Assembly: GCA_963771355.1 (NCBI GenBank)
Contig: CAVYTA010000006.1
Location: 2,656,001 to 2,720,000 of the forward strand
Reading direction: 5' to 3'
Source: an uncultured Candidatus Rokubacteria bacterium
GTDB lineage: Bacteria; Methylomirabilota; Methylomirabilia; Rokubacteriales; CSP1-6
Length of the DNA: 64,000 nt
Shown here: positions 21,311-41,467 of the stretch, one piece after another
How positions within the stretch are numbered: position 1 is the stretch's first letter
How the letters are laid out: the number at the start of each line of letters is the position of its first letter
The notes under the pieces: generated by a model
Told to the model about the DNA's origin: nothing
Databases searched by the model: none
The model's input: the letters and a program-made list of their open reading frames with translations, nothing else
Translations under genes and position numbers: made by a program

Positions 21311-21335
21311 CGGGGGAACCCGAATACGCTATGTT
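21307..21335 (+). promoter_or_regulatory. sigma70-type promoter of csp gene 1
   Basis: TTGACG-17 bp-TATGTT. Confidence 0.7.
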
Positions 21336-21526
21336 TCCAGCAGGTCGCAGGGTCACTCGGTAGCAACCGATTCGTAGCGAACAGCCGTCGCTAGGCTCGA
21401 GTTCAATGCCGCGGGGACCTCAGGTCCCGCGGCGTTTTTTGTTTGACCCTCCATTCCTGGAGGGAGCCCCCGCCATGGTGGCGGGGTAACACAGGGGCGA
21501 AGCCCCAGAAGAAAGAGGGAGTAGAA

Positions 21527-21833: not shown

Positions 21834-21863
21834 TTGACAGGCGGGCAGCCCGATTGTTAAGTT
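21834..21863 (+). promoter_or_regulatory. sigma70-type promoter of csp gene 2
   Basis: TTGACA-18 bp-TAAGTT with extended TG. Confidence 0.7.
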
Positions 21864-22059
21864 ATGCGCGGTTCGCACCTGAAATGCCGCTTGACCTGTA
21901 CGTGAGCCAGCATCGCGAGTAGTCAGCGGAAGCGCCGAGAGGACCCCGGTCCTCCAGGCGCTTTTTTTGTTTTCCCCCGATCTTGGGGGTGCCCCGGCCA
22001 TGGTGGTTGGGGATCACGCGGGTGGCCCATCGCCGCTCAAGGAGAGAGGGAACCGAGGT

Positions 22060-22260
22060 ATGGCACAAGGTACGGTCAAGTGGTTCAACGACGCGAAGGG
22101 CTATGGCTTCATTCAGGTCGAGGGTGGCGAGGACGTCTTCGTGCATTACAGCGCCATCCAGGCCCAGGGCTTCAAGAGCCTGGCCGAGGGTGACAAGGTC
22201 GAGTTCGAGGTGACCAAGGGCCCCAAGGGGCTTCAAGCCTCGAACGTGCGGAAGGCGTAA
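22060..22260 (+). CDS. cspA: cold-shock protein (CspA family), copy 2
   Basis: [18 protein letters not shown]...DVFVHYSAI. Confidence 0.95.
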
Positions 22261-22290
22261 CAACTACCAGACCCCAACTCAGAGACGACG

Positions 22291-22326
22291 ACGGCCCGCC
22301 GGGATGCCGGCGGGCTGTTTTATTTT
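22291..22326 (+). terminator. intrinsic terminator after csp2
   Basis: ACGGCCCGCCGG-GATG-CCGGCGGGCTGT then TTTATTTT. Confidence 0.8.
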
Positions 22327-22354: not shown

Positions 22355-22687
22355 AAGAAAAAGCCCCGACGGTGCTTGCGGCCTAGGTGCTGCCTGGCCG
22401 CCCCGCTGGTGAAAGAGCGGGACCGTCGGGGCCGGTGGTTCCTGGATCCTCCAGGGCCACCTGCAACTGCTACATCCGGGCCTTAGGAGGTGACCACCTC
22501 ACAGATCACCGTAGGAGTACACATCGGCTGGATCACCTCCCTTTCTCGGCGAGGCCGGAAATAGGCCCAGGTCCCTTTGACCTCGCACCGGACGCCGACT
22601 CCCGGCCCGAGGCTCGGTCACGTCGTCGCCGGCGAAATTGCCGACGGGAGACGCTGATGGAGCCTGTGTGCGCTCCGACCGATTTCG
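22355..22687 (-). ncRNA. candidate ~330-nt structured RNA / small-peptide mRNA with extended SD
   Basis: Own promoter (22693-22721); several hairpins; 16-nt match to 16S rRNA 3' end before a 13-codon ORF; closing stem plus U tract. Confidence 0.6.
22483..22524 (-). CDS. putative 13-aa peptide MCTPTVICEVVTS
   Basis: ATG directly after AGAAAGGGAGGTGATCCAGCCG; translation unproven. Confidence 0.45.
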   Translation of the reverse strand: MCTPTVICEVVTS

Positions 22688-22692
22688 GGGTC

Positions 22693-22721
22693 ATCGTACC
22701 TACACGACGGAGGGCGTGCAA
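22693..22721 (-). promoter_or_regulatory. sigma70-type promoter
   Basis: TTGCAC-17 bp-TACGAT on the minus strand. Confidence 0.65.
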
Positions 22722-22731
22722 AGGCTTTTTT

Positions 22732-23037
22732 TCACTTCACCGCGATCCGCCCTTCGTTCTTCTCCAGCACGCCCTTCCCCACGCCCTCGACCTTCTCGAG
22801 ATCCTGCGCGCGCCGGAACGGACCGTGAGCCTGGCGGTAGCTGATGATCCGGTCGGCCGTGCCCGGCCCCACCCCGCTGAGCTTCATCAGCTGGGCCCGC
22901 GACGCCTCGTTGATGTTGACCTTGCCCTCCGCCTTGGCCGGCTTGTCCTCGGCGCTCGCGCCCCCGGCGGTCAGACATAGCGCCAGCGCCGTCACCGTCG
23001 CGATTCCGATCATCCGTCCGAGTCCACCTCGCTCCAT
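22732..23037 (-). CDS. ComEA-like helix-hairpin-helix DNA-binding protein
   Basis: Signal peptide plus VNINEAS..QL..LSGVGP..A..II.YR...G.F....DL..V.GVG. Confidence 0.88.
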   Translation of the reverse strand: MERGGLGRMIGIATVTALALCLTAGGASAEDKPAKAEGKVNINEASRAQLMKLSGVGPGTADRIISYRQAHGPFRRAQDLEKVEGVGKGVLEKNEGRIAVK

Positions 23038-23862: not shown

Positions 23863-25908
23863 TCACCCGCCCTCGACCGCGGTCAGCTGCTCGGAGAGCT
23901 CCTCCCATTCCTTCATGAGCCAGGCCACCTGCTCCTCCGCCTGCCGGCGCGACTCCGAGATCTCGCGCGCGCGGTTGCCGTCGCGGTAGAGGTCCGGATC
24001 GGCCAGTGCCAGCCCGATGTCGGCCAGCCGTGTCTCCATCTCGGCGATCTGCTTCTCGATGGTTTCGAGCCGGCCTCGTATCGCCTTCACCTCGCGCTCC
24101 AGGGCCCGCCGACCCGACTTCTCGGGCGACCCTTCCCGGCGCGCCGGCGACGGCCCGCGAGCGGGCGCGGGTCGGGCGGGCGACGACGGGGAGGGAGGAG
24201 CGGGCGTGGTGATCGCGGCGGCGGGGCGGCTTCCGGCGGCCCTCGCCGGAGGCCTCGCGCCGGACATCGCGTCGGGGCGGCGCGGCCCGGGCGCGGAGAC
24301 GGGCTCCGCCGACGTCCGCGCCGCACTGGCGGCGAGATAGTCATCGTAATTTCCGAGATAGTCGGTGAGCCGGCCCCCCTGCACCTCGACCACCCGCGTG
24401 CCGATGCGGTTGATGAAGTAACGGTCGTGGGAGATGAAGACGATGGTCCCGGTGAAACCGGCCAGCGCCTCCTCGAGCACCTCCTTGGAGGCGAGATCCA
24501 GGTGGTTCGTCGGCTCATCCATGCAGAGAAGCGCGGCCGGATGCACCAGCATCTTGGCCAGCGCCAGCCGCGCTTTCTCTCCCCCGGACAGCACCGCCAC
24601 GCGCTTGTCCACCGCGTCGCCGCCGAAGAGGAACGAGCCGAGAATGGTCCGCAGACGGGTGTGGGTGGCGTCGGGGGCGGCCCCCTCCAGCTCCTCGAGC
24701 ACGGTGTGCGCCGGATCGAGGGCGTCGAGCTGATGCTGCGCGTAGTAGTGCACCTCGACGTGCGACCCCAGCACGCGCTCGCCCGCGTCGGGCGGCAGCA
24801 CGCCGGCCAGCATCTTGAGCAGCGTGGACTTGCCGGCGCCGTTGACGCCCACCAGCGCGATGCGCTCCGCGCGCTCGGCGGTGAAGTTCACCCCCGCGTA
24901 CACCACGTTGTCGCCGTACGCCTTGCGCACACCCTCCAGCCGCATGACGATGCGGCCGGTGCGGGGCGGCTGGGGAAACTTGAAGTGGATCTTCCGCGCG
25001 TCGCCGTCCACCTCGATCCGCTCCACTTTCTCGAGCATCTTGATCCGGCTCTGCACCTGGCGCGCCTTGGTGGACTTGTAGCGGAAGCGGTCGATGAAGC
25101 GCTCGATCTCCTCGATGCGCTTGGCCTGGTTGCGGGCCCGGGCCTCGATGAGCGCCCGCCGGGCCTCGCGCTCCACGAGGAAGTGTCGTAGTCGCCCGGA
25201 TAGACCTCCACCTCGCCGGCCGCGAGCTCGGCGATGGAGGTGACCATGCGGTTGAGGAAGTAGCGGTCGTGCGACACGATCACCACGCTGCCGTCATAGG
25301 AGGCGAGGAAGTTCTCGAGCCAGCCCAAGCGACTCGAGATCGAGGTGGTTGGTGGGCTCGTCGAGGAGCAGGAGGTCGGGGCGCAGCAGGAGAAGCCGCG
25401 CCAGGGCCGCCCGCATCCGCCAGCCGCCCGAGAACTCGCCGAGCGGGCGGTGGAGCCCGGCGGGCGCGAAGCCGAGCCCGCCCAGGATCATCTTGGCCTC
25501 GGCCTCGAGGCGGTAGCCGCCCAGCGCCTCGAAGCGATGCTGGACCTCGCCGTAGCGGTCGGTCAGCCCGGGGTATGCGTCGGGGCGGGCCATCGCCTCG
25601 GCGAGCCGCTCCAGCTCCGCCTCCAGCTCCCAGACCTCGTCGAAGCCGGAGAGCGCCTCCGCCAGCACGGTACGGTCGACCCCGCCCGCCACTTCCTGGG
25701 GCAGGTACCCCACGGTGATGCCGCTGTCGAGGTGCACGCGCCCCGCATCGGGCTCCTCGGCGGAGGCCAGGATCCGACAGAGCGTGGTCTTCCCCGCCCC
25801 GTTGGGCCCGACCAGGCCGATGCGCTCCCCGCGGCCCACGCGCCACGAGCATCCGCGCAGGAGCTCCTGCCCGCCGTAGCCCTTGGAGACGCCGTCGAGC
25901 GCGATCAC
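23863..25908 (-). pseudogene. ABC-F family ATPase interrupted by two compensating single-base indels (possibly assembly error)
   Basis: Two NBDs (GPNGAGKT, GVNGAGKS, SGG, DEPTNHLD) split over three ORFs; extra base near 25325, missing base near 25184. Confidence 0.8.
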
Positions 25909-32198: not shown

Positions 32199-32213
32199 CG
32201 CTTCTCCCAGCGA

Positions 32214-32326
32214 GCGCCTACGAGGTTAGCTGCCGGGTTCGGGCCTGGGACGCCCTACCGCAGTCCGACGCGGATTCACCCCGATGTAACGGGTCCCCCG
32301 TTTCCCCTCGCGGGGAAATTCGGCGC
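32214..32326 (-). ncRNA. c-di-AMP (ydaO/yuaA) riboswitch
   Basis: Ordered motifs GCCGAAU, GGGGAAACGGGGGACCC, GGGGUGAAUCC, GGUAGGG, CCCGAACCCGGCAGCUAACCUCGUAGGCG. Confidence 0.92.
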
Positions 32327-32452
32327 AACGGCTGGATGCTACTCCCTCCCGCCCTCGCTTGGCAACCAAGGCGAGGCCGAGGCGTGGCAAACTAGGCCCG
32401 CGGGTACCCGGACCTGCGGTGGGGTTCACGGATGCGCCGCCAGGAGGACTCG

Positions 32453-41063: not shown

Positions 41064-41179
41064 CGTTGTCTCTCCTCTTCGATCGTTGGCTGGAATGGGC
41101 CGGACTGGATCCGGCCTGGTTTGTTGGCTCTCAGGCGCCCCGCGGCGGCCGCCGCCGCGACCCGCTACGCCGCGATCCG

Positions 41180-41467
41180 CTACTCGATGATGGCGAGCAC
41201 GTCCTCCTCGCGCATGATCAGGTACTCCTCGTCGTCGATCTTCACCTCGGAGCCCGAATACTTGCCGAAGAGGATCTTGTCGCCCGCCTTGACGTCGAGG
41301 GGGATCTTCTTGCCTTCGTCACTCACCTTCCCGTTTCCCACCGCGATCACCTTGCCCTCCTGGGGCTTTTCCTTGGCGGTGTCCGGGATGATGATGCCGC
41401 CCTTCTTCTGCTCCTGCTCTTCGAGACGCTTGATAAGGATGCGGTCGTGCAACGGACGAATCTTCAT
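41180..41467 (-). CDS. groS: co-chaperonin GroES
   Basis: [10 protein letters not shown]...[16 protein letters not shown]. Confidence 0.98.

Follow-up and report, generated by a model that had tools for sequence, protein, structure and literature searches.

tmRNA acts at the ribosome as a free-standing, structured RNA that has pseudoknots and a short ORF inside it. At the recoding sites of prfB and dnaX, an element resembling a Shine-Dalgarno (SD) site lies within an ORF at a fixed distance from the decoding event, and the type I toxin mRNAs hok, AapA and TimP hide their SD in a fold that is opened by refolding. In attenuators and small RNAs of the rnTrpL/peTrpL type, as far as the portions of that literature considered here go, translation of a 10–16 codon ORF is predicted to switch folds. 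The RNA gene described here resembles each of these in the features just named, and its nearest described relative is Ms_IGR-5 (RF02471). According to the excerpts considered here, IGR-5 of M. smegmatis sits between MSMEG_5794 and MSMEG_5795, begins with A, is NAD-capped and is termed "uncharacterized" (bioRxiv 10.1101/2021.12.14.472595); it is also reported as ncMSMEG15794c (PMC10454040) and is expressed in Streptomyces (PMC8079986, PMC8780764). In M. abscessus, its homolog ncMab10731 has an RNA-seq value of 70 and a Ribo-seq value of 3737 RPKM (PMC4974804 supplement), which places it at the top of 36 ncRNA rows in both Ribo-seq value and ratio (tmRNA, 3581), with many tRNAs in the same data having higher Ribo/RNA ratios (PMC4974804). 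This ratio could be inflated, since pairing with 16S may lead an RNA to be purified or depleted together with rRNA. A literature search, which had most subscription papers outside its scope, returned no description of an ORF or a function for IGR-5.

Positions 22355–22685 (minus strand) of the window, meaning the whole 64,000-nucleotide stretch analyzed from a Candidatus Rokubacteria genome, are a stand-alone gene for a folded, conserved, single-copy RNA of ~331 nt. BLAST conservation starts there, and the inferred +1 is A22685. An earlier note had described this unit from its letters, and a check of the sequence confirmed the whole observation, with each of its features at the place claimed. 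The promoter, read there as TTGCAC-17-TACGAT, has a weak −35 hexamer at 22716–22721 (three of six consensus positions, loosely kept in relatives) and a −10 hexamer at 22693–22698, in which TA-n-n-AT is kept in 30 aligned relatives. Across a 17-nt spacer, the two boxes together match the sigma-70 consensus at just 7 of 12 positions, and the promoter is therefore not listed by a simple promoter scan. The RNA region folds with z = −5.95, and none of 100 shuffles was equally stable. Near-identical contigs from six RNA runs (four studies), one of them reaching a depth of 213, all lie within 22396–22682 and are unstranded; the metatranscriptome contigs of the four studies end at 22673–22682. Among the eight runs compared, the two others gave contigs that cross a boundary, and 16 listed RNA runs, picked for containing that stretch, contain part of the RNA gene. 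This gives a weak hint of a discrete transcript from 22355–22685.

A gathering-threshold Rfam scan and a whole-genome family search returned no match at 22355–22685. Ms_IGR-5 nevertheless matches 22355–22550 with 28.3 bits against a cut-off of 45 (E = 4.6e-4 in a 2-kb search), and the RNA is thus not the orphan without a known family that it had been taken for. Short forms from Methylomirabilota pass the RF02471 cut-off (L068, 84.3 bits; L116, 67.7 bits), and the long-form relatives L164, L124 and L085 score 41, 40 and 35; across 20 homologous loci, eight reach at least 45 bits, six lie at 27–41 and six have no match. Because the score is below the cut-off and the chain of homology runs through short forms that pass it, we regard the RNA as a distant homolog and not as an Rfam member. 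By sequence comparison, it is a distant long-form homolog of Ms_IGR-5 with an added 5′ domain. The two have the same order of parts, with an extended SD, a short frame containing GAGGUG followed by three codons and a stop, a downstream CACC strand, and then a terminator domain with a pairing loop; the purine-rich GGAGGUGRUCC block at the 5′ side of Ms_IGR-5 is also present in the long form. While the SD of Ms_IGR-5 lies within ~15 nt of the 5′ end of an RNA of ~165–185 nt, a ~140-nt 5′ domain precedes it in the long form, where a GGUGA:UCACC pseudoknot replaces GGAC:GUCC and a strong hairpin between the SD and the ORF end is added. In the Rfam model, the SD is paired with the ORF end, and two elements described below, the helix P2 and the pseudoknot PK2, are both absent.

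By BLAST, the unit is present in 56 of 61 related genomes and in each of the 30 high-quality ones, with a few partial matches. Most Rokubacteriales and related Methylomirabilota carry a single copy. The sole match in the genome to a model built from 70 cross-phylum members, its own core included, is the 22355–22685 locus. A core pattern matched 169 of the 251 genomes of the phylum, with one copy each bar one genome and no control matches, and a relaxed pattern recovered 21 of 35 genomes missed by the core pattern. The relaxed pattern also matched 99 of 201 Actinomycetota genomes (two control matches) and raised the count in Acidobacteriota from 1 to 9 of 121, about seven of them real; in two further phyla, the pattern search matched 1 of 101 and 2–3 of 101 genomes. 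A scan of the collection listed at least 120 loci of an estimated 1700 in all, two of which are chance matches, and the loci listed come from Actinomycetota, Methylomirabilota, Binatia/Desulfobacterota, Acidobacteriota and Nitrospirota. The BLAST, core-pattern and Actinomycetota tallies include a few unpublished genomes, on which the structural claims do not depend. The search patterns required the 11-nt SD core and the internal hexamer as fixed sequence, so that members lacking them would go unseen, and the relatives are not independent of one another. We rejected a mobile-element or phage gene, as the strict pattern had no match in viral contigs and none was found in phage records; the one match in the plasmid collection is an actinobacterial homolog on a 2.66-Mb Nocardia record. 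Identity with Streptomyces scr4389, a guess from locus numbering, was also set aside; an Rfam scan of a Streptomyces locus gave Ms_IGR-5 alone, and two papers on scr4389 carry no sequence for it. At L146:1554–1700 (Saccharopolyspora rosea), the downstream parts of the family are absent after the stop, where the sequence resembles by eye an insertion-sequence end, and L146 is possibly a disrupted copy.

The genes flanking the unit are unrelated across lineages and phyla (70 ORFs scanned), and neighbors are heterogeneous and often convergent, with no conserved co-oriented downstream operon. Upstream lies a helix-hairpin-helix gene (22732–23037, minus strand; Pfam HHH_3), which we take to be ComEA-like. 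As the earlier note had seen, the unit converges on a cold-shock-domain gene outside it (22060–22260, plus strand; Pfam CSD), which has its own terminator at 22290–22319. This csp neighbor is confined to part of Rokubacteriales, and the suggested tie to cold shock is not supported. Nor is a leader-peptide mRNA, as the unit lacks a conserved gene behind it and its terminator points at a convergent gene. We made several separate observations in the window. The csp leaders at 21335–21440 and 21860–21975 (plus strand) are long and, ahead of the coding region, carry a hairpin and U tract that resemble a terminator (terminator scan match at 21405–21436; fold z about −2.1 each), with weak matches to the cspA thermoregulator (49 and 25 bits, cut-off 78); premature termination or attenuation of csp transcription is possible. 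A gene for an ABC-F-like ATPase, its family inferred from translation (23863–25908, minus strand), appears to be split into two frames near 25176–25328 by a frameshift, pseudogene formation or an assembly error. A c-di-AMP riboswitch lies at 32199–32335 (minus strand; 93.9 bits), and ARAGORN called a tRNA-Pro(CGG) of atypical length (101 nt) at 41087–41187 (minus strand), where the gathering-threshold Rfam scan is silent.

The extended SD spans 22525–22546 (minus strand; core 22540–22530) and is complementary to the genome's own 16S 3′ end. The 16-nt anti-16S match proposed earlier holds against this end, that of a single 16S gene on contig C7, with which the RNA pairs over 16 nt exactly; the match widens to all 21 terminal bases with one bulge on the RNA side. 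The duplex with the 16-nt tail reaches −26.7 kcal/mol; across the genome, none of 3021 ORFs from a crude call has an SD as strong (median −10.1 kcal/mol; strongest valid value −22.5, once a slicing artefact at −23.9 is set aside). Among 145 homologs, the positions upstream of GGAGG that face a U in the tail of 16S are either A or G, the R within the SD core likewise faces a 16S U, and the position that faces a 16S C is G in 140 (position −1 was set by the search pattern in 120 loci). With variation almost wholly of the wobble type, the SD looks selected for pairing with 16S. The idea that this pairing goes beyond a normal SD survives for 11 nt plus five upstream purines, which are conserved, but not for the 5-base extension before the free tail, which is not general. 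In the parts of a S. aureus study considered here, start-proximal extended SDs with AU/GU wobble are normal, occurring at ~30% of start sites; such extensions form on S. aureus ribosomes and go with non-canonical or weak start codons (PMC13009471). By analogy, this precedent makes the extended-SD geometry plausible, yet less exceptional, and since extended SDs are normal in S. aureus, this first SD (SD1) may only secure initiation.

The SD is followed by a 13-codon mini-ORF (MCTPTVICEVVTS; 22483–22524, minus strand). We compared reading frames in 145 distinct sequences from 150 loci, all of them kin. Between the SD and GAGGUG, the ORF frame is open in 144 of 145, against 60 and 36 for the other two frames; in-frame stops in this spacer occur in a single sequence, upstream of the start, vs 85 and 109 in the other frames. 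All 145 homologs have an in-frame start within the first four codons (ATG 51, TTG 50, GTG 22, and the near-cognate CTG, ATC, ACG or ATA 22). Across the family, the mini-ORF is 11–16 codons long, and its free codons are AU-rich (38% GC). The residue preceding the C-terminal Glu-Val takes nine different values and is Cys in 41 of 145 sequences; we discarded a conserved Cys ("CEV", cysteine sensing) as an artefact of the first patterns, having found this count once the codon was freed. Selection thus appears to act on the frame, or on the act of translation, and not on the peptide. The stop is TAG in 101 of 118 members for which any stop was permitted, compared with 36% of the genome's crude ORFs; P2b pairing or RF1-specific termination may be behind this preference.

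Nine nucleotides before the stop lies a second SD-like element, the hexamer GAGGUG (22495–22500, minus strand), which is invariant in homologs and is found 8–9 nt ahead of the stop codon family-wide. Where synonyms were permitted, Glu-Val is written GAG GTG in 118 of 118 members, compared with 46% of Glu-Val pairs genome-wide. Two members (L426 and L427) read the hexamer in another frame, as Gly-Gly, 8 nt before the stop; their promoter, P2 helices and terminator are all intact, and they are clear family members. In L428 and L429, 11 nt separate hexamer and stop and P2a is not evident. With no fixed distance to the stop, the matched Actinomycetota genomes rose only from 99 to 103 of 201, the newcomers having 8–11 nt. 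This suggests that the constraint falls on the nucleotides of the hexamer and on its position before the stop. The duplex of the hexamer with 16S amounts to −14.1 kcal/mol. Its GGUG also pairs with the CACC of P2a, which alone could explain part of the invariance.

We assessed the fold in two alignments: A1, with 46 of 78 long forms (near-duplicates, long-insert forms and one unpublished genome removed), and A2, with 70 of 104 candidates across phyla (mis-anchored and redundant rows removed; a CACC-like anchor within 85 nt required). In A1, a 77-pair structure is 94.7% paired, compared with 33–54% in slid controls, and 32 pairs have changed on both sides vs 17.7 ± 2.1 in shuffles; in A2, two-sided cells number 104 overall vs 40 ± 5 after shuffling. 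These shuffles ignore relatedness, and the significance is therefore overstated. At 22434–22456 (minus strand), two lock strands, the 3′ sides of P2b and P2a, pair with the last ORF codons and the stop, and could instead form a local hairpin. P2a is 89.5% paired in the 70 cross-phylum sequences, with five of nine pairs changed on both sides, and P2 is also backed by a test on 45 distinct ORF ends that needs no alignment (z about −6); within long forms, the P2a/P2b region is invariant. In five long forms (L038, L056, L057, L060 and L066), ~70–140 extra bases occupy the apical part of P2 after the stop with the flanking helices intact, making apical P2 a tolerant insertion site.

The second pseudoknot, PK2, joins GGUGA of the ORF (22506–22510, minus strand), located in two codons ahead of the hexamer, to UCACC in a loop of the terminator domain (22408–22412, minus strand) identified by comparison of relatives. 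The partners change together across lineages, giving the matching variants GGAC:GUCC, GGUGA:UCACC, GGAU:AUCC and CGAC:GUCG. An alignment-free test on broad windows was not significant (z −1.6), and the signal became clear once the test was restricted to the loop, where the cognate run is 4.37 vs 3.42 ± 0.10 (126 rows). Counted from the start codon, the PK2 strand begins at +14 or later in 130 of the 133 ORFs that were scored. Binatia-type short forms (L093, L107, L108 and L149) keep the SD, frame, hexamer and P2 and end in a plain terminator with no PK2 loop, and PK2 is therefore dispensable in some lineages. The terminator domain (22355–22433, minus strand) consists of an 11–12 bp stem around two hairpins and then a U tract, six of 12 stem pairs having changed on both sides; the 11-bp stem (22432–22422/22373–22363) and the end of the unit at 22355 are where the earlier note had put them.

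The 5′ domain comprises two parts. Part 1 (22614–22682, minus strand), with two-sided changes among 46 sequences, is formed by a closing helix (22682–22677/22619–22614; two-sided changes in five of six pairs), a hairpin with a conserved ACA(CA)G loop (22676–22658; three of four pairs) and a second hairpin (22645–22628; three of five). Part 2 (22546–22613, minus strand) contains a hairpin (22613–22580) and a pseudoknot, PK1, in which the loop 22598–22593 pairs with 22551–22546, abutting the SD; 98.6% of its cells are paired, and one of its pairs is G:C in 27 and A:U in 19 of the 46 sequences. The domain has no Rfam match and carries conserved unpaired motifs, and visual inspection shows a similar one in long forms from other phyla. 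A shorter variant of it, ~100 nt upstream of the SD, is present in Acidobacteriota and metagenome loci (L384, L385, L388–L390, L252 and L308), with the GGCGG..CGCCC pairing and the UGGG motif kept and the ACACA hairpin absent.

Two mutually exclusive folds had been proposed, with the ORF end pairing either with the SD over 10 bp or with an internal GGUGAUC. Alternative folds do exist, and the SD:ORF-end helix is present and is part of the predicted minimum-energy fold, but the details differ. Across phyla, GGUGA pairs with the terminator-domain loop instead, and the main partner of the ORF end is the downstream strand, with many two-sided changes; pairing with the SD is strong mainly in the long form. 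There, the SD:ORF-end helix is kept in 95% and the internal-hairpin helix in 91% of cells (46 long forms), with no two-sided change in either. We rejected the SD:ORF-end pairing as a covarying helix of the whole family (z −1.3; a single two-sided pair among 70 sequences). In the predicted ensembles it prevails for this RNA and for five of six other long forms, but for none of 13 short forms. The SD of this RNA is hidden in the predicted ground state, with an unpaired probability of 0.09 and about 24 kcal/mol needed to open it (pseudoknot-free model). As this helix dominates long-form ensembles only, the long form appears to have a closed and an open state.

We propose, with a probability of roughly 0.55, that the RNA mimics an mRNA, loading a ribosome and then keeping hold of it. 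The maximal SD would capture a 30S subunit, and the first 4–6 AU-rich codons would fill the mRNA channel, leaving PK2 near the channel entrance; a distance of +14 from the start codon is about the length held in the mRNA channel. Elongation would then have to unwind PK2 and P2. With the stop codon in the A site, GAGG would lie 8 nt from the P-site codon, a distance that equals normal SD spacing, and GAGGUG would pair again with the 16S tail and delay release or recycling. In the long form, the SD:ORF-end hairpin would compete with the open fold and, together with the 5′ pseudoknot, would gate loading. What the comparison supports in the interpretation of the earlier note is a transcription unit made for engaging the 30S subunit or the 70S ribosome, with a translated mini-ORF and alternative folds. 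The target is likely the ribosome itself, parked or with its 16S tail shielded, because all invariant elements point towards the ribosome, and the loop sequences vary together with the ORF; we favor holding of the ribosome over the four other explanations for the same reason. The M. abscessus homolog has a low RNA-seq value, and this speaks against bulk sequestration under the condition sampled.

A translation-gated sensor, in which the role of the ribosome is only to open the RNA, which then acts in trans through an exposed C-rich strand, a protein site or a change in stability, is a possible but doubtful alternative. The mutually exclusive folds suit it, as do a frame that matters when the peptide does not and an RNA level modest enough for a regulator. 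The conserved unpaired motifs of the 5′ domain fit as well, and in one variant the ACACA loop or the 5′ domain would be a protein-binding site and the RNA would report translation capacity. However, the loop to be set free varies in step with the ORF (GUCC, UCACC, AUCC or GUCG), unlike a seed for outside targets.

We consider it improbable that the RNA guides or guards maturation or quality of the 16S 3′ end by pairing with the tails of new or idle small subunits, with translation as the test or release. The complementarity spans the free tail and goes no further than the inferred mature end, and position −6, mostly G or C, cannot pair with the next A in the genome's 16S gene, but any SD optimized for mature 16S would look alike. 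Moreover, roughly half of the Actinomycetota sampled, and most of the genomes sampled from three other phyla, yielded no pattern match, which speaks against a maturation role.

Still less probable is an mRNA for a functional small peptide, a type I toxin or a signal, silenced by folding. Its strong SD, the fold that hides this SD in the long form and the C-terminal Glu-Val of most members would be expected of such a gene, but the peptide is polar, only 11–16 aa long and variable, its three final codons change along with the strands they pair with, and L426 and L427 have lost Glu-Val but kept the nucleotides. The gene is single-copy and chromosomal, with no match in viral contigs or phage records. 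The suggestion of a type I toxin-like mRNA is therefore not borne out by an unconserved, polar peptide, in which Cys precedes Glu-Val in only 41 of 145 sequences and the hexamer encodes Gly-Gly in two members. Least probable of all, and largely excluded by context, is a cis attenuator or an antisense or cold-shock regulator of the neighboring csp genes. The convergent csp gene adjoins the unit in several Rokubacteriales, but separate terminators lie between the two units, other families and phyla have other neighbors, and no sensing codon is conserved, Cys included.

Holding of the ribosome by an mRNA mimic also departs from the described systems. Unlike tmRNA, the RNA has its own SD and start codon, and it has neither a tRNA-like domain nor a conserved tag. 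ARAGORN found no tmRNA in the 64-kb window, and 6S (RF00013) has no match at the 22355–22685 locus; an ordinary tmRNA lies on contig C3 and a 6S RNA on C7 (82 bits), and we rejected a stand-in for either, as the genome has both elsewhere. Compared with leader-peptide attenuators, the long form comes without a downstream operon, conserved sensing codons or a conserved peptide. No slippery site or continuing frame of the prfB or dnaX kind is evident, and the spacing to the last sense codon is like that of an initiation SD. In contrast to hok, AapA and TimP, the peptide is neither hydrophobic nor conserved, and the gene has a single chromosomal copy.

The description of this family, which reaches at least Methylomirabilota, Acidobacteriota, Nitrospirota and Binatia/Desulfobacterota, newly gains the structure of the long form, two pseudoknots and members with a shifted frame. 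IGR-5 has been catalogued as an actinobacterial non-coding small RNA, and comparison of its relatives instead points to a translated, pseudoknotted RNA with two SDs. Translation kept by selection, with a free peptide and no downstream operon, is an unusual pattern. We put forward only tentatively that Ms_IGR-5 and the long forms are a cross-phylum class of ribosome-parking RNAs, in which the ribosome would be clamped between a 16-bp duplex with the 16S tail and a pseudoknot, and gripped again at the stop codon by the second SD. If true, this class would be an RNA-only counterpart of hibernation factors, and in Rokubacteria the pseudoknotted 5′ domain would make loading of the ribosome signal-dependent.
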